From assembly GCA_963847055.1 (NCBI GenBank), contig CAWJYE010000008.1, forward strand, positions 298,947-362,946: a DNA stretch of 64,000 bases, given 5' to 3'. Positions 24,331-28,793 of the stretch are shown piece by piece. Each line of letters starts with the position of its first letter. Positions within the stretch are counted from its first letter, which is position 1. A model generated the notes under the pieces. The model made no database searches, had not been told where the DNA came from, and saw nothing but the letters and a program-made list of their open reading frames with translations. Position numbers and translations under genes: made by a program. The stretch comes from an uncultured Solirubrobacterales bacterium (GTDB lineage: Bacteria; Actinomycetota; Thermoleophilia; Solirubrobacterales; Solirubrobacteraceae).

Positions 24331-24668
24331 CGGGTCGGCTCCGCAGCTCCGCCGACCGCGCCCGCTCCGTCGGATCCACCATTTGGCCCACCCGCCCGCG
24401 CGCCCGCCGCAGGCACCTCGGCCGGGCGGGCGGTGAAGAACACGTGGTTGGTGGTCGTGTCGCGCTCGGCGATGAACCAGGCGCGACACCCGGAGCGATG
24501 AAACCACCACTCGCGCTGGATCCCAGCCGTGTTGCGGCGGAAGTAGTTGTAGGCGCTGAGCTCGCGGAAGCTGGGACGAGCCGGGGGTCGAGGCGAGAGT
24601 TCGCCCCCGAAGGCGAAGTCAGTGACCTCGCGTGCGCCGCAGTTTGGGCACGTCAGGACGAACGACAC
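24327..24668 (-). CDS. soxD: Sarcosine oxidase family delta subunit
   Basis: CPNCGAR...EWWFHRSGCRAWFIAERDT Zn-binding pattern. Confidence 0.9.
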   Translation of the reverse strand: MSFVLTCPNCGAREVTDFAFGGELSPRPPARPSFRELSAYNYFRRNTAGIQREWWFHRSGCRAWFIAERDTTTNHVFFTARPAEVPAAGARAGGPNGGSDGAGAVGGAAEPTR

Positions 24669-24675
24669 CCCGCGG

Positions 24676-24743
24676 ACGCTACGACCGCGGACTGATCCTG
24701 TCCAATATCGATTCTGCGACTATTGATCTGCGTTTGCTATCAA
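24676..24743. promoter_or_regulatory. soxD leaderless -10 box and LysR-type operator
   Basis: Minus-strand TAGCGT (24676-24681) lies 7 nt upstream of the soxD GTG. TTGAT-N11-ATCAA (24723-24743) has T-N11-A geometry, next to the divergent lysR. Confidence 0.55.
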
Positions 24744-24755
24744 AGGACCCCAGCC

Positions 24756-25637
24756 GTGGAACTACGCCAGCTTCGCTATTTCGTCGCCGTCGCCGAGGAG
24801 CTTCACTTCCGTCGCGCGGCCGCGCGCCTGCATGTGTCCCAGCCGCCCATCAGCCAGCAGATCGCCCGTCTCGAGCGAGAGTTGGGCTGCCGCCTTCTCA
24901 ACCGCACCCAGCGACGGGTCGAGCTGACCGCGGCCGGCGAGGCGTTCCTGCGCGACGCCCGGGCGATGCTGGGCGAGCTCGAGGTCGCGGTGGCCACCGT
25001 GCGGCGGATCGACGTCGGCCAGGCGGGATTGCTGAGGATCAACTTCGTCGGCTCGGCGCTGCTATCGATCGTTCCCGGGATCGTCCAACGCTTCCGCCGC
25101 GGGCGGCCGAACGTCGAGATCGAGCTCCGCGAGCGCTCGACGCTCGCGCAGCTGCGGGCCCTGACCGCCGGGGTCGTCGACGTCGGGCTGGTGCGGCCCC
25201 CGATCGACCCCGACGATGGGCTCCGGACCGAGGTGGTGATGCGCGAGCGCACCGTGGCCGCGATCCCCGCCGGTCACCCGCTGGCCAAGCTGCGGCGGGT
25301 GCCGCTTGCGCGCCTGGCCGCCGAGCCGCTGGTCCTGTTTCCGCGCGAGCAGGCGCCCGGCTACCACGACCTCCTCACCGGCCGGCTCGCCGCTACCGGC
25401 ACCTCGCCACAGGTCGTCCAGTACGCGCCCGAGATGCTGACCATCATCGGCCTCGTCGCCGCCGGGATCGGCGTCTCCCCGGTTCCCGCCTCGGTCGCCC
25501 GGCTGGCGCTCGACGGGGTCACCTACCGCCCGCTGGTGGGCGCACCCGACACCGAGCTGCTGGCGCTCACGCGCGCCGGCGATGAGTCGCCGTTAGTGAG
25601 GGCTTTCCTCGCCGACGCCCGTGAGCACCGGGATTGA
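24756..25637 (+). CDS. LysR-family transcriptional regulator
   Basis: ELRQLRYFVAVAEELHFRRAAARLHVSQPPISQQIARLE. AAAGGA RBS before GTG 24756. Confidence 0.95.
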   Translation: MELRQLRYFVAVAEELHFRRAAARLHVSQPPISQQIARLERELGCRLLNRTQRRVELTAAGEAFLRDARAMLGELEVAVATVRRIDVGQAGLLRINFVGSALLSIVPGIVQRFRRGRPNVEIELRERSTLAQLRALTAGVVDVGLVRPPIDPDDGLRTEVVMRERTVAAIPAGHPLAKLRRVPLARLAAEPLVLFPREQAPGYHDLLTGRLAATGTSPQVVQYAPEMLTIIGLVAAGIGVSPVPASVARLALDGVTYRPLVGAPDTELLALTRAGDESPLVRAFLADAREHRD

Positions 25638-26615
25638 GTCCGGGCGCCGCCGGCGGGCCTCGATCTGCTCGAGCTTGGCCAGCAGGCTCTCGGCCATCCT
25701 GATCGAGGCGGCGTCGATCAGCCGGCCGTCGAGCGAGACGGCGCCCTTGCCCTGGGCCGCCGCCTCCTCCATCGCGGCGACGATCCGGCGGGTCTTCTCG
25801 ACGATCCGCTCACTGGGCGTGAACACCTCGTTGGCAAGCTCGATCTGGGACGGGTGGATAGCCCACTTGCCCTCGTAGCCAAGCACGGCCGCCCGGCGGG
25901 CGGAGGCGAGATAGCCGTCGGGATCGGTGAAGTCCCCGAACGGCCCATCGATCGGACGCAGCCCGTAGGCCCGGCAGACGACCGCGATCCGCGCCAGCGC
26001 GAAGTGCCACTGATCGCCCAGGTGGCGCTCGCGCTCGCTCGCGCCATCCGCGTCGGCGAGCATCGCATAGTCCGGGTTGGTGCCCCCGATCGAGGTCGTG
26101 TGGCTCTGGATCGAGGCGGCGTAGTCGGCGACCCCGAAAACCATCGCCTCCATCCGCTCCGGACATGCCCGCGCGATCTCCTCACAGTTGACCATTCCGA
26201 TGGCGGTCTCGATCAACACGCTGATCGCGATCCGGCCACCCAGTCCGATCGCGTCCTCGATCTGGCTGAGCAACGTCGCCACCAGGTGGATGTCGGCGCC
26301 GCAGCTCGCCTTGGGGATCATGATCGAGTCCAGGTGGCTGCCCGCCTGCTCAACGACGTCGACGAGGTCGCGATAGCAATAGCGCGTGTCGAGACCGTTG
26401 ATCCGCAACGAGACTGAGCAGCCCGACCAGTCCTGCTCGCGCAGCGCGTCGATCACGTTGCGCCGCGCCTGCTCCTTGTCATCGGGGGCGACCGCATCCT
26501 CGAGGTCGAGCATCACGATGTCGGCTCCGGCCCTCGGAGCCTTCTCCAGCATCCGGACGTTGCTGCCCGGAACAGCGAGCTCACTGCGATGAAGGCGCGT
26601 CGGCGTCGGGCTCAT
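25593..26615 (-). CDS. mcl: Malyl-CoA/beta-methylmalyl-CoA lyase (CitE-like superfamily)
   Basis: RLHRSELAVPGSN, LDLEDAVAPDDKEQAR, RINGLDT, FGVADYAAS, RAYGLRPIDGPFGDF, GKWAIHPSQI, AVSLDGRLIDAASIRMAE closely follow remembered Methylorubrum MclA. Confidence 0.87.
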   Translation of the reverse strand: MSPTPTRLHRSELAVPGSNVRMLEKAPRAGADIVMLDLEDAVAPDDKEQARRNVIDALREQDWSGCSVSLRINGLDTRYCYRDLVDVVEQAGSHLDSIMIPKASCGADIHLVATLLSQIEDAIGLGGRIAISVLIETAIGMVNCEEIARACPERMEAMVFGVADYAASIQSHTTSIGGTNPDYAMLADADGASERERHLGDQWHFALARIAVVCRAYGLRPIDGPFGDFTDPDGYLASARRAAVLGYEGKWAIHPSQIELANEVFTPSERIVEKTRRIVAAMEEAAAQGKGAVSLDGRLIDAASIRMAESLLAKLEQIEARRRRPDSIPVLTGVGEESPH

Positions 26616-26650
26616 GGGTCGGCGAAGTAGAGCGTCTGGTTACCGTGATT

Positions 26651-26678
26651 ACAAATTCAATTCTTTAGATGAATTTGT
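26651..26678. promoter_or_regulatory. Perfect 9-bp inverted repeat in the mcl/aminotransferase divergent promoter
   Basis: ACAAATTCA-N10-TGAATTTGT within a markedly AT-rich patch. Confidence 0.6.
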
Positions 26679-26729
26679 TCCAAACTTCGATGAATCAGCT
26701 CGGGCGGCTGGGGTAGACTCGCCTCGCCG

Positions 26730-27881
26730 ATGGCCGATCCCAACGCCTTTGCTCCCCTTGATCCGCCTGAGCGACTGCTCTGTGGACCCGGCCCGAGCAA
26801 CGTCACGCCAGTCGCGCTGGCGGCCATGCAGCGACCGCTGCTCGGGCACCTCGACCCCCATCTGCACGAGATCATGACCGAGTTGGTCGGCCTCTTGCGA
26901 GCGGCCTACCAGGCCGCGGGCGGCCTGGTGCTGCCACTTCAAGCGACCGGGACCTCCGGGATGGAGTGCGGTCTGGCCCACCTGCTCGAGCCGGGCGATA
27001 CCGCGATTATCGGCGTGAACGGTTTCTTCGGACGCCGGGTGGTCGAGATCGCCGGCCGGCTGGGCGCCAAGGTCGTGCCGGTGAACGCCGACTGGGGCTG
27101 CCATGTGTCCAACCAGCAGCTGCTTGAAGCCCTCGACGCGCACCCCGACGCGCGGCTGATGGCGGTCATCCACGCCGAGACCTCGACCGGGGTCCGGCAT
27201 CCCCTGGCCGAGCTCGGAGACGAGCTGCGCGACCGCGAGGTGATGCTGATGGCCGACTGCGTGACCTCGCTGGGTGGCGTCGAGCTCGACTTCGACGGTT
27301 GGGGAATCGACTTCGCCTACTCCTGCACGCAGAAGTGCCTTGGTGCCCCGCCCGGCATGTCTCCGGTGGCCGTGTCGGACCGCGCGCTGGAGCGGATCAA
27401 GGCGCGCACGCATCCAGTCTCCTACTCGCTCGACCTTGAGCTGCTCGAGCGTTTTTGGGTCAAGCGCCCCGCCGTCTACCACCACACTGCCCCGGTGCTC
27501 CACATCTATGCGCTCTACGAGGCCCTGCGCGAGGTGGCGAGCGAGGGCCTGCGGGCTCGCTGGGAGCGCCACAACCGGGCCGGCTCCTACCTCCAGGACG
27601 AGCTGAAGGCGCGGGGCCTCGAACTCCTCGCCGAGCCCGAGCACCAGCTGGCCCCGCTGACCGCGGTGCGCGTCCCCGAGGGGGTCGACGGCCCGCACGT
27701 GCAGGCGCGCCTGCTGCGCGAGCACCGGATCGAGGTCGGCGGCGGGCTTGGCCCGGCGGCGCCGGCGATGTGGCGGATCGGGTTGATGGGCTACAACGCC
27801 CGCATCGAGATCGCTGACCGGGTTCTGGCGGCGCTCGACGCCGTACTCGCTGACGAGCCCGCGCTGAGTCCCACCGCCTGA
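26730..27881 (+). CDS. Class V PLP aminotransferase, alanine/serine--glyoxylate aminotransferase type
   Basis: LLCGPGPSN, GHLDP, TGTSGME, IHAETSTGV, DCVTSLGG, YSCTQKCL (PLP Lys), YHHT, WRIGLMG. Confidence 0.88.
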   Translation: MADPNAFAPLDPPERLLCGPGPSNVTPVALAAMQRPLLGHLDPHLHEIMTELVGLLRAAYQAAGGLVLPLQATGTSGMECGLAHLLEPGDTAIIGVNGFFGRRVVEIAGRLGAKVVPVNADWGCHVSNQQLLEALDAHPDARLMAVIHAETSTGVRHPLAELGDELRDREVMLMADCVTSLGGVELDFDGWGIDFAYSCTQKCLGAPPGMSPVAVSDRALERIKARTHPVSYSLDLELLERFWVKRPAVYHHTAPVLHIYALYEALREVASEGLRARWERHNRAGSYLQDELKARGLELLAEPEHQLAPLTAVRVPEGVDGPHVQARLLREHRIEVGGGLGPAAPAMWRIGLMGYNARIEIADRVLAALDAVLADEPALSPTA

Positions 27882-27896
27882 CCGACCGCTCGCGCC

Positions 27897-28793
27897 CTAC
27901 GGGCTGGCCTGGGGAGGCGAGGCCTCAGCGGCCTCAGCGGACGCACTGCCTTGGGCGCGAGCCGCCGCGAGCGTGTTACCGAGCAGCATGGCGATCGTCA
28001 TCGGGCCGACCCCACCCGGCACCGGAGTGATCAACCCGGCGACCTCGACCGCCGAGGCGAACTCGACGTCACCCACCAGCCCCGCCCCGGTCCGGTTGAT
28101 GCCGACGTCGATCACCGTCGCGCCCGGCTTGATCCAGCTGCCCTTGACCATTTGCGGGCGCCCGACGGCAGCGATCAGCACGTCGGCCCGGCGGCAGACC
28201 TCGTCGAGATCCCGGGTGCGAGAGTGGCACGTGGTGACGGTGGCGTTCTCGGCCAGGAGGAGTGCGGCCACCGGCTTGCCGACCAGATCCGAGCGGCCCA
28301 CGATCACCGCCTCGGCTCCCTCGAGGGCCACCTGGTAGCGGCGCAGGAGCTCGATCACGCCCGCCGGCGTGCACGGCCGCAGGCCCGCAAGCCCCTTGGC
28401 GAGCAGGCCCGCGGACACGGGCGTGAGCCCATCGACGTCCTTGCCGGCGTCGATCAGAGTCGTCAGGAAGGAGCCGTCAATGTGTTCGGGAGTCGGCAGC
28501 TGCAGGAGGATGCCGGAGACGAGGTCGTCGCCGTTGAGCTCGTGTATGAGCGTCTGCACCTCGGCCTGCGTGGCGCTGGCGGGAAGATCGTGGGCGAATC
28601 CCTCGATCCCCACCTCCGTGCACGCCCGCTGCTTGCCGGCCACGTACACGGCCGAGGCGGGATCTTCTCCCACCAGTACGGTGGCGAGCCCGGGCCGGCG
28701 GCCACCTTGCGCGCACCATGCGTCAATCGCCGCGCGAACTTCCGCACGCACCTGGGCGGCGATCGCCTTGCCGTCGATTATCTGGGCGCTCAT
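27897..28793 (-). CDS. folD: Methylene-THF dehydrogenase/cyclohydrolase
   Basis: IIDGKAIA, YVAGK, GILLQLP, KDVDGL, PCTPAG, GRSDLVGKP, VIDVGIN, TPVPGGVGPMTIAML. Confidence 0.97.
   Translation of the reverse strand: MSAQIIDGKAIAAQVRAEVRAAIDAWCAQGGRRPGLATVLVGEDPASAVYVAGKQRACTEVGIEGFAHDLPASATQAEVQTLIHELNGDDLVSGILLQLPTPEHIDGSFLTTLIDAGKDVDGLTPVSAGLLAKGLAGLRPCTPAGVIELLRRYQVALEGAEAVIVGRSDLVGKPVAALLLAENATVTTCHSRTRDLDEVCRRADVLIAAVGRPQMVKGSWIKPGATVIDVGINRTGAGLVGDVEFASAVEVAGLITPVPGGVGPMTIAMLLGNTLAAARAQGSASAEAAEASPPQASP

Follow-up and report, generated by a model that had tools for sequence, protein, structure and literature searches.

This locus raises the question of what a malyl-CoA lyase (Mcl) and a glyoxylate aminotransferase (AGT), encoded divergently on either side of a short spacer, do in a soil actinobacterium of the Solirubrobacteraceae (order Solirubrobacterales). 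The earlier note offered two options: in one direction the pair would regenerate glycine for a serine cycle, in the other it would assimilate sarcosine-derived glycine through glyoxylate and acetyl-CoA into malyl-CoA. It had placed both open reading frames correctly in the window, by which we mean the whole stretch of 64,000 nucleotides that was analysed, and it was also right that glyA, hpr, gck and mtkAB are absent from the window. The genes referred to here are the following.

24723..25637, (+) strand: LysR-family regulator (PF00126 and PF03466)
25593..26615, (-) strand: mcl, predicted (S)-malyl-CoA/beta-methylmalyl-CoA lyase of the Rhodobacter/Methylobacterium type, 340 aa (PF03328, PDB matches and residues)
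26730..27881, (+) strand: agt, predicted AGXT-type class V (PLP) glyoxylate aminotransferase, 383 aa (PF00266 and PDB matches)
27897..28793, (-) strand: folD, methylene-THF dehydrogenase/cyclohydrolase (PF02882 and PF00763; NF010783, 358 bits against a cut-off of 333)

The mcl and agt ORFs have a coding signature (GC3 0.87-0.88) that fits a genome of 69% GC, and the ATG codons of both line up with the start codons of their relatives. In a profile search Mcl was found to belong to the HpcH/CitE family (PF03328, 136.7 bits, residues 11-255). Its best solved relative is the M. extorquens malyl-CoA/beta-methylmalyl-CoA lyase 5ugr, with 411 bits over 313 aligned residues and an identity of 61% counted in the first 103 aligned positions, or about 60-65% overall as judged by eye. 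Rhodobacter Mcl1 (4l9y) scores 329 bits, while CitE-type chains reach at most 119 bits and malate synthase 32 bits in the PDB search. These scores bear out the claim that Mcl closely follows the proteobacterial methylotroph enzyme, and it does not group with non-Mcl CitE proteins. The alignments with 5ugr and 4l9y extend to residues 318-319, that is, they include the C-terminal lid domain. None of the NCBIfam equivalog models is passed by Mcl (citE, 189 bits against a cut-off of 443; RipC, 172 against 375; haloarchaeal Mcl, 120 against 500). The catalytic and Mg-binding residues of Rhodobacter MCL are Glu44, Asp45, Arg76, Glu141, Asp168 and Asp299 (PMC3832036); mapped with the residue list of that paper through the 4l9y alignment, they correspond to E39, D40, R71, E136, D164 and D301 of Mcl. 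All six catalytic and metal residues are thus kept, and the lid position is an Asp, not a Glu. Judged by its sequence, Mcl is a genuine malyl-CoA/beta-methylmalyl-CoA lyase. In a quick tree it falls within a Thermoleophilia clade with 99% support, and soil metagenomes contain hundreds of Mcl homologues with >80% identity.

The partner is a class V aminotransferase (PF00266, 102 bits in the profile search), whose PLP lysine, K202 within SCTQK, aligns with the SQK motif of 1vjo. This Nostoc alanine-glyoxylate aminotransferase is also its best PDB match (360 bits), ahead of human AGXT (~275 bits) and PucG (238 bits). The Sga of methylotrophs resembles plant AGT1. With the plant (Arabidopsis) SGAT 6pk1, AGT gives only 123 bits, well under its AGXT-type matches, and the Sga type of serine-cycle methylotrophs is on this score rejected; of the earlier label 'AGT/SGAT-type' only the first half survives. 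No NCBIfam equivalog is passed by AGT (BhcA, 180 bits against a cut-off of 650). From these matches AGT is AGXT-type, with serine or alanine as candidate amino donor. We recognised no further AGXT/SGAT-like gene in this genome, and at E 1e-25 or better the other class V paralogue (C5:326472-327566) matches no PDB entry.

The two genes diverge from a single spacer, which contains a conserved element.

26616..26729, no strand: 114-bp spacer between the divergent mcl and agt, 51% GC against 69% GC for the genome
26665-26680, mcl strand (-): conserved AT-rich motif GAACAAATTCATCTAA, candidate operator
26651..26680, (-) strand: element that includes the motif, with a 9-bp inverted repeat, ACAAATTCA (26651-26659) and TGAATTTGT (26671-26679), separated by an 11-bp gap

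The mcl ATG is preceded at about 45-60 bp by the core ACAAATTCATC in 15 aligned related loci of both neighbourhood types, with 1-3 substitutions in some of them, for example L029, L034, L035 and L041; the inverted repeat form is described for this genome. The AT-rich motif or the inverted repeat may serve as an operator. Across the 3.57-Mb genome the 11-bp core occurs exactly only this once, and the 16-mer has only two weak matches elsewhere, with 3 mismatches each. A shared promoter had been proposed for the pair; a sigma-70 promoter scan of 26616-26729 found no consensus-like site.

The neighbourhood in the window is a C1 island, with gmaS/mgs-like genes, a Sox/Mgd-like operon, Fhs, Fch-like and FolD genes, and a TMADH-like gene with ETF. 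The LysR gene is convergent with mcl, which it overlaps by 45 bp, and divergent from the mgd (Sox-like) operon over 54 bp. It is kept beside mcl in 18 loci and shares only ~30% identity with the CbbR-like LysR found next to agt in other Thermoleophilia. An alternative frame to the left of mcl (24632-25585) was rejected, as it has no family match and GC3 supports the LysR frame instead. On the other side folD is convergent with agt and adjoins it in 16 loci. In G011, a genome of the same genus, AGT and the entire island are present but Mcl is not, and we found no remnant of it there; Mcl is therefore dispensable in that genome.

Among related loci AGT adjoins Mcl in 59 of 84, so the adjacency is far beyond chance. 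In Solirubrobacterales and Thermoleophilaceae the two genes diverge; in Gaiellales and other Actinomycetota they are co-directional, with AGT ahead of Mcl. The G035 cluster has the order Mcl-PRK, LysR, AGT-Hpr-GlxK; G057 and G015 combine Hpr, GlyA, LysR, PRK, a family III CoA-transferase, AGT, Mcl and Ppc; and in another actinobacterial lineage (L095-L102) the order is (Hpr)(Ppc)-AGT-Mcl-MtkA-MtkB. Ppc immediately follows Mcl in L029, L031, L042 and L044, and in the Thermoleophilia of family f6 a family III CoA-transferase lies directly upstream of AGT-Mcl-Ppc. In a class sample of 61 genomes all six with this Mcl also have GmaS or RuBisCO, against 16/61 overall.

We therefore favour the forward, serine-cycle reading, because the companions of the pair in relatives are Hpr, glycerate kinase, GlyA and Ppc, joined in one lineage by mtkAB. 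With a probability of roughly 0.55, we propose that Mcl-AGT is a glyoxylate-to-glycine node that feeds C1 assimilation of the serine-pathway type in a methylamine island. Mcl would cleave (S)-malyl-CoA, and possibly beta-methylmalyl-CoA, to glyoxylate and acetyl-CoA or propionyl-CoA, and AGT would aminate the glyoxylate to glycine with serine or alanine as donor. Attached to a trimethylamine/methylamine island (N-methylglutamate pathway, FolD, Fhs, Fch), the pair would supply glycine as the C2 acceptor, which GlyA would join with methyl-derived methylene-THF to give serine. Such assimilation could be cyclic or open (co-assimilation), and the malyl-CoA might come from either of two SucCD pairs or from a third, divergent SucCD-like pair. 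The analysis establishes what the two enzymes are, their catalytic residues, their conserved pairing and its clusters in relatives; which way the flux runs, which amino donor is used and where malyl-CoA comes from are inferred.

Of the two options in the earlier note, the forward serine cycle is thus the better supported, although canonical MtkAB is lacking here. The genome search that it had called for found glyA, an hpr candidate, GlxK genes as candidates for the gck step, and ccr, and found neither canonical mtkAB nor icl nor an Mcl2-type malyl-CoA thioesterase. There is one GlyA (515 bits), a GRHPR-type reductase (C5:1298934-1299854, 274 bits to 2cuk) that is 49% identical to the Hpr of the clusters, two Ppc genes, and two GlxK as candidate glycerate kinases; no glycerate kinase of the MOFRL type (GckA) was found in the genome. 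GlyA, the Hpr candidate, GlxK and Ppc all lie outside the window in non-C1 contexts, and around glyA, malate synthase and the Hpr candidate we found only housekeeping or unrelated genes. With the MtkA model NF010647, whose cut-off is 604 bits, this genome scores 390, 372 and 178 bits, and its candidates are at most 44% identical to the Mcl-linked type of MtkA, which occurs in none of the Mcl-positive Thermoleophilia sampled. The genome has three SucCD-like pairs, two canonical ones, which pass the SucC and SucD models, and one divergent. Tried as MtkAB, the SucCD-like pair on C1 falls under every cut-off and co-distributes with ccr, not with this Mcl, so it is no more than a candidate. The second canonical pair, beside Ppc, was rejected in this role: it passes the SucC and SucD models and is 78% identical to the first. 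This duplicate occurs in this genome only among the sample, and it is therefore not a conserved partner of Mcl-AGT; the neighbours of this SucCD pair look like an oxalate set, with an Oxc-like TPP enzyme and a Frc-like CoA-transferase. The family III CoA-transferase of the clusters has no orthologue in this genome, where its best match is 36% identical. Malyl-CoA thioesterases (Mcl2) form a clade marked by a Glu that replaces the lid Asp (PMC3832036), and the genome has no such enzyme, as all three of its CitE-family proteins keep the Asp. The earlier note would have given up its reading in the absence of both malate thiokinase and malyl-CoA thioesterase, and the genome comes close to this, since only the non-canonical SucCD-like candidates remain. 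A cyclic pathway is also not proven because the genome has malate synthase, ccr, a second lyase, form I RuBisCO and glyoxylate carboligase (gcl); with CbbX, two PRK, Hyi and GlxK also present, C1 units could enter as CO2 and glyoxylate could have other routes.

The lack of a dedicated malate thiokinase also agrees with the opposite direction, in which AGT would deaminate glycine to glyoxylate and Mcl would condense this with acetyl-CoA to malyl-CoA, which leads to malate. Both enzymes are reversible (PMC3832036), a reversible SucCD-like ligase could recover ATP from malyl-CoA, and 13 loci have GcvT-like/demethylase-type genes, possible sources of glycine, close to the pair. We nevertheless consider this direction improbable. 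The Glu of the Mcl2 clade is missing from all three CitE-family paralogues, malate synthase and glyoxylate carboligase would make a route through the lyase redundant, and the genes that accompany the pair in relatives (Hpr, GlxK, GlyA, Ppc and MtkAB) are those of the forward cycle. Supply from sarcosine, as first suggested, is a weak proposal, because the Sox-like enzyme near mcl is encoded 7 kb from the gmaS/mgs genes and so would regenerate glutamate, not glycine.

The genome lacks isocitrate lyase (ICL) and has Ccr (495 bits against a cut-off of 379) with a B12-dependent mutase 5 kb from ccr, and the M. extorquens homologue of Mcl works in both the serine cycle and the EMC pathway. Mcl might then be a beta-methylmalyl-CoA lyase for C2 assimilation, with AGT merely draining some glyoxylate to glycine. 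We regard this as quite unlikely, since the distribution of Ccr does not track this Mcl: it occurs in nine of nine sampled genomes of the two closest families, with or without Mcl, and is lacking in both Mcl-positive genomes of family f6. The likelier EMC lyase is a second, Chloroflexus-type enzyme (493 bits to 4l7z) encoded 17 kb from ccr; the two genes between them were considered as mcd/mch and are MoaA-like and DipZ-like instead, so that mcd and mch were not located at this site. No EMC cluster is known in which mcl is paired with an aminotransferase. Disposal of glyoxylate from the RuBisCO oxygenase product, as glycine and malyl-CoA, is similarly doubtful: PRK and CbbR-like LysR genes flank the pair in 19/84 and 24/84 loci, this genome has its own form I RuBisCO, CbbX and PRK genes, and Mcl of the CBB autotrophs Nitrotoga and Gallionella is 67-69% identical, in some with an AGT homologue nearby, but the three genomes with PRK-flanked clusters (G035, G057 and G015) have no RuBisCO large-subunit match of any form, five RuBisCO-positive sampled genomes lack this Mcl, and here the cbb cluster lies elsewhere and a known salvage route (gcl, hyi and glxK) is encoded ~13-17 kb from the RuBisCO gene.

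Returning to the glyoxylate-to-glycine node, the pair is real and represents an Mtk-less form of a known system. The lack of a canonical malate thiokinase points to some other malyl-CoA-forming step, which would also matter to the engineering of malyl-CoA-glycerate and serine-cycle pathways (PMC5964204). More tentatively, we speculate that soil Thermoleophilia may have a serine-cycle variant for the methyl groups of methylated amines that does without malate thiokinase. Activation of malate would fall to a divergent SucCD-like ligase in Solirubrobacterales or, in another family, to a family III CoA-transferase; the place of Sga would be taken by an AGXT-type enzyme, and a PRK-family kinase would be a conserved member even without RuBisCO; if so, this kinase implies a step absent from the textbook cycle. 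The Solirubrobacterales and their relatives in the Thermoleophilia rank with the most common Actinomycetota of soils and have few cultured members. The classical description of methylotrophs among the actinobacteria is that they use the RuMP pathway, and a literature search turned up no relevant paper on a serine cycle or malyl-CoA lyase in Solirubrobacterales or Thermoleophilia. If the pair feeds glycine to methylene-THF, methylamine-derived carbon would be assimilated, not merely oxidised.

Four known systems can be compared with the one described here. Mcl belongs to the same lyase subgroup as Mcl1 of Rhodobacter sphaeroides, which acts in the EMC pathway (4l9y, 329 bits), and keeps all its catalytic residues, but here there is no Mcl2-type paralogue, Ccr does not co-occur across relatives and an aminotransferase is paired. 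In Chloroflexus aurantiacus, with its 3-hydroxypropionate bi-cycle and succinyl-CoA:malate CoA-transferase, malyl-CoA can form without a thiokinase, as it could here. The CoA-transferase upstream of AGT-Mcl-Ppc in family f6 and the Chloroflexus-type lyase elsewhere in this genome are parallels, whereas Mcl of the window is of the Rhodobacter/Methylobacterium subgroup, the genome lacks an orthologue of the cluster CoA-transferase and it has no sign of a 3-HP bi-cycle. In M. extorquens AM1 (Methylobacterium/Methylorubrum) the qsc genes are sga-hprA-mtdA-fch and mtkA-mtkB-ppc-mclA, and their regulator QscR is a LysR/CbbR homologue. The window resembles this system in an Mcl ~60-65% identical to MclA, a linked glyoxylate aminotransferase, THF C1 enzymes (FolD, Fch-like and Fhs) and a LysR gene as neighbours; ICL is absent, and a Ccr-based route might regenerate glyoxylate here too. 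The present genome differs in the lack of MtkAB, in an aminotransferase of the AGXT and not the Sga type, in GlxK-type kinases without a MOFRL GckA, in scattered hpr, ppc and glyA, and in its host, a Thermoleophilia actinobacterium in which RuBisCO and Gcl are present as well. The L095-L102 island of uncultured soil Actinomycetota is co-directional and continues with MtkA-like (567-577 bits to NF010647) and MtkB-like genes, while the pair in the window is divergent and has neither, and the Mcl of the two fall in separate clades; like the window, however, this island has an AGT, 52-60% identical, directly beside an Mcl that is 67-69% identical.

The malyl-CoA lyase (Mcl) and glyoxylate aminotransferase (AGT) genes of this window lie back to back on either side of a 114-bp spacer (51% GC), in the arrangement that the earlier note described.

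25593-26615, minus strand: mcl, 340 aa, HpcH/CitE family
26730-27881, plus strand: agt, 383 aa, class V aminotransferase with PLP lysine K202

Among all solved structures, Mcl matches best the malyl-CoA/beta-methylmalyl-CoA lyase of Methylobacterium extorquens (5ugr, 411 bits) and Mcl1 of Rhodobacter sphaeroides (4l9y, 329 bits), against 175-182 bits for Chloroflexus-type lyases and at most 119 bits for CitE-like proteins. The proposed closeness to the proteobacterial methylotroph enzyme is thus borne out. Residues were placed through the 4l9y alignment and the residue list of Zarzycki and Kerfeld (PMC3832036): E39 and D40 map to the water/Mg network, R71 to the catalytic Arg, E136 and D164 to the Mg ligands and D301 to the C-terminal lid. 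In the malyl-CoA thioesterase clade the lid position is a Glu (PMC3832036). Since it is Asp here, the window protein is predicted to act as a lyase, not as a hydrolase of the Mcl2 type. Judged by the Mcl gene, the nearest among the best 80 of 545 relatives are MAGs from Solirubrobacteraceae and Solirubrobacterales (class Thermoleophilia). In a quick, midpoint-rooted ML search the window Mcl falls inside a clade of 50 Thermoleophilia sequences (99% support) that stands apart from proteobacterial and other actinobacterial Mcl, which argues for a probable long residence in the lineage over recent import. The aminotransferase had been called AGT/SGAT-type, of which only the first half stands: it matches best 1vjo, the alanine-glyoxylate aminotransferase of Nostoc (360 bits), followed by human AGXT (~275 bits), and reaches just 123 bits with 6pk1, the serine-glyoxylate enzyme of plants.

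We put the probability that this pair serves a serine pathway in the forward direction at slightly better than even, about 0.55. Mcl would make glyoxylate, AGT would convert it to glycine, and GlyA would join methyl-derived methylene-THF to the glycine to give serine. The strongest evidence on function comes from the gene neighbourhoods of relatives. A one-genome-per-species scan found 545 Mcl relatives, the best 80 of which were combined with four loci taken out of the sampled genomes to give the 84 loci compared. An AGT orthologue adjoins mcl in 59 of these; in some 40 loci from Solirubrobacterales and Thermoleophilaceae the two genes point away from each other, and in Gaiellales and other Actinomycetota they run the same way, with AGT first. 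The window's block PabB-FolD-AGT-Mcl-LysR-(Sox/Mgd-like operon)-Fhs is seen again in about 15 genomes among the best 80 of the 545 relatives. Three other Thermoleophilia genomes have richer clusters: the order is Mcl-PRK, LysR, AGT-Hpr-GlxK in G035, and Hpr, GlyA, LysR, PRK, family III CoA-transferase, AGT, Mcl, Ppc in G057 and G015. Ppc immediately follows Mcl in four further loci. A separate actinobacterial lineage (loci L095-L102) has (Hpr)(Ppc)-AGT-Mcl-MtkA-MtkB, and its MtkA-like proteins reach 567-577 bits with the MtkA model. The clustered partners glyA, hpr, glycerate kinase, ppc and mtk (malate thiokinase) belong to a serine cycle running forward, not to glycine breakdown, and the window locus is a minimal, Mtk-less, divergent form of this pairing.

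The CoA-transferases of G057 (L128:8180-9424) and G015 (L129:6328-7833) match PF02515 with 387 bits, are 78% identical to each other and have succinate-hydroxymethylglutarate CoA-transferase as best PDB match. The gene lies directly upstream of AGT-Mcl-Ppc in G057 and two genes upstream in G015, with a LysR gene between it and AGT; both genomes are without ccr and without the divergent SucCD pair described below. The enzyme is a candidate succinyl-CoA:malate CoA-transferase replacing malate thiokinase.

The mcl/agt spacer carries the motif GAACAAATTCATCTAA. Its core is conserved in 15 aligned relatives, some of which differ from it by one to three substitutions, and sits roughly 45-60 bp ahead of the mcl start. 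In the window's genome the motif forms one of the two arms of a 9-bp inverted repeat; the genome holds no second exact copy of the 11-bp core, and only two weak three-mismatch matches to the 16-mer occur elsewhere in it. We read this motif as a putative local operator. The LysR gene beside mcl and the mgd operon are transcribed away from each other with 54 bp between them, which makes that operon the regulator's most obvious target.

The surroundings of the pair are a methylated-amine and folate C1 island, comprising a TMADH-like flavoprotein with ETF, a GS-like (GmaS) gene with GATase and GXGXG (Mgs) genes, a stand-alone DAO oxidoreductase, a Sox/Mgd-like alpha, gamma, beta operon, formate-THF ligase with an FTCD_C (Fch-like) protein, and FolD and PabB. 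If the Sox-like enzyme is of the N-methylglutamate-dehydrogenase type, it would yield methylene-THF and glutamate, not glycine, which weakens the earlier proposal of sarcosine-derived glycine. The closest sampled relative, G011 of the same genus, retains the whole island (FolD, AGT, LysR, Mgd operon, Fhs, GmaS), with an AGT 75% identical to that of the window.

L124:10998-14645: region of G011 with 1.7 kb between AGT and LysR in place of mcl

The 1.7 kb between AGT and LysR holds two small ORFs without family match, and no Mcl or mcl remnant was detected in G011. This relative, with island and AGT but without the lyase, shows that Mcl is an accessory, losable part. Across 61 sampled Thermoleophilia genomes, with presence scored at 66% identity or more, window-type Mcl occurs in only six. 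GmaS or RuBisCO is found in all six, against 16 of the 61 overall, a co-occurrence among related genomes that is no formal test. The Mcl-linked MtkA type occurs in none of the six.

The earlier note proposed a genome-wide search for serine-cycle genes, which we carried out on this genome (3.57 Mb, 69% GC, 10 contigs, completeness score 100%; the window is C8:298947-362946). One GlyA is present, as is a GRHPR-type glyoxylate/hydroxypyruvate reductase (contig C5:1298934-1299854, 274 bits to 2cuk) that shares 49% identity with the reductase from the relatives' Mcl-AGT clusters. There are two GlxK-type glycerate kinases and no MOFRL kinase, two PEP carboxylases, malate synthase, and a Ccr above the curated cut-off with a B12 mutase 5 kb away; ICL is absent. 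No canonical MtkAB was found: with the MtkA model NF010647 (cut-off 604) the hits score 390, 372 and 178 bits, the first two SucCD-like pairs pass the SucC/SucD models, and the candidates are at most 44% identical to MtkA-like genes downstream of mcl in other bacteria. Nor does any of the genome's three CitE-family proteins carry the thioesterase-type Glu. The joint absence of malate thiokinase and thioesterase, which the earlier note named as refuting the pathway, is therefore nearly complete on canonical grounds, with three SucCD-like pairs left (C5:704460-706621, C5:1057008-1059120 and C1:72180-74356). For the cycle to close, some enzyme would have to form malyl-CoA and glyoxylate would have to be regenerated; otherwise the route could be open, co-assimilating C1 into serine with malate from central metabolism.

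The second canonical SucCD pair (C5:1057008-1059120) is 78% identical to the first, a duplication seen only in this genome among the 61. It lies in a run (C5:1051673-1063685, locus L104) of Oxc-like TPP enzyme, Frc-like family III CoA-transferase, ADP-forming acyl-CoA synthetase, SucCD, MFS transporter and Ppc that may be an oxalate-utilisation set. On contig C8 (40264-43295; L105:4264-7295, minus strand) lies the gene for a 604-aa protein whose N-terminal part is an HpcH/CitE domain (125 bits) and whose further ~380 residues have no Pfam match; this unusual fusion is followed by a family III CoA-transferase gene.

The pair could instead salvage glyoxylate for the Calvin cycle. A bona fide phosphoribulokinase (PRK) gene flanks it in 19 of 84 loci (the cluster PRK scores 306 bits to NCBIfam PRK07429, cut-off 236) and a CbbR-like LysR in 24. 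The window's genome has a Calvin-cycle cluster within some 28 kb of C5 (388333-416251; L122, L123) with form I RbcL (768 bits), CbbX, two tandem PRK genes and a CbbR-like LysR. However, G035, G057 and G015 have the PRK-flanked cluster but no match to a RuBisCO large subunit of any form, and five RuBisCO-positive genomes of the 61 lack window-type Mcl. Moreover, the RuBisCO gene of the window's genome has gcl, hyi and glxK at a distance of about 13-17 kb. In the three RuBisCO-less genomes, which are 97-98% complete, one being a single contig, the PRK-family gene and CbbR-like LysR lie within the Mcl/AGT/Hpr/GlyA/Ppc clusters (L127:10794-11750, L128:7076-7972 and L129:15339-16265, respectively). 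The C5 region also holds GlxK, urate oxidase, glyoxylate carboligase (872 bits, above cut-off), a hydroxypyruvate-isomerase-like gene, an IclR/BhcR-like regulator and a second Ppc.

Mcl might alternatively be the lyase of the ethylmalonyl-CoA pathway, whose reductase Ccr this genome has. Yet Ccr occurs throughout the sampled genomes of the two nearest families, with or without window-type Mcl, and is missing from the Mcl-positive genomes of a further family (f6). Contig C1 carries a second set of candidates: 

C1:79945-81009 (L010:17946-19010), minus strand: second malyl-CoA lyase, Chloroflexus tri-functional type, 493 bits to 4l7z and 490 to 6kin
C1:72180-74356 (L010:10181-12357), minus strand: divergent SucCD-like pair, beta subunit 245 bits to SucC and 179 to MtkA

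Around this second lyase, ccr is found at 17 kb, a B12 acyl-CoA mutase at 10 kb and the divergent pair at 6 kb; the beta subunit of that pair falls below both the SucC and MtkA cut-offs. The pair has exactly the distribution of ccr in the sample (5/5 and 4/4 genomes of the two nearest families), usually 14-40 kb from it, and could be the ligase that joins CoA to a C4/C5 dicarboxylate of the ethylmalonyl-CoA pathway, or to malate. The Chloroflexus-type set, not the window Mcl, is likely the ethylmalonyl-CoA machinery, and the genome thus carries both structural subgroups of Mcl. The reverse direction of the Mcl-AGT pair is chemically possible, but would be redundant with malate synthase plus Gcl and lacks a recognisable thioesterase.

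Returning to the forward serine pathway, Mcl and AGT are ordinary members of known families, and we found no literature that connects the serine cycle or malyl-CoA lyase with Thermoleophilia. What is unusual here is the consistently missing malate thiokinase, the AGXT-type enzyme in what would be the Sga role, and the host group itself.
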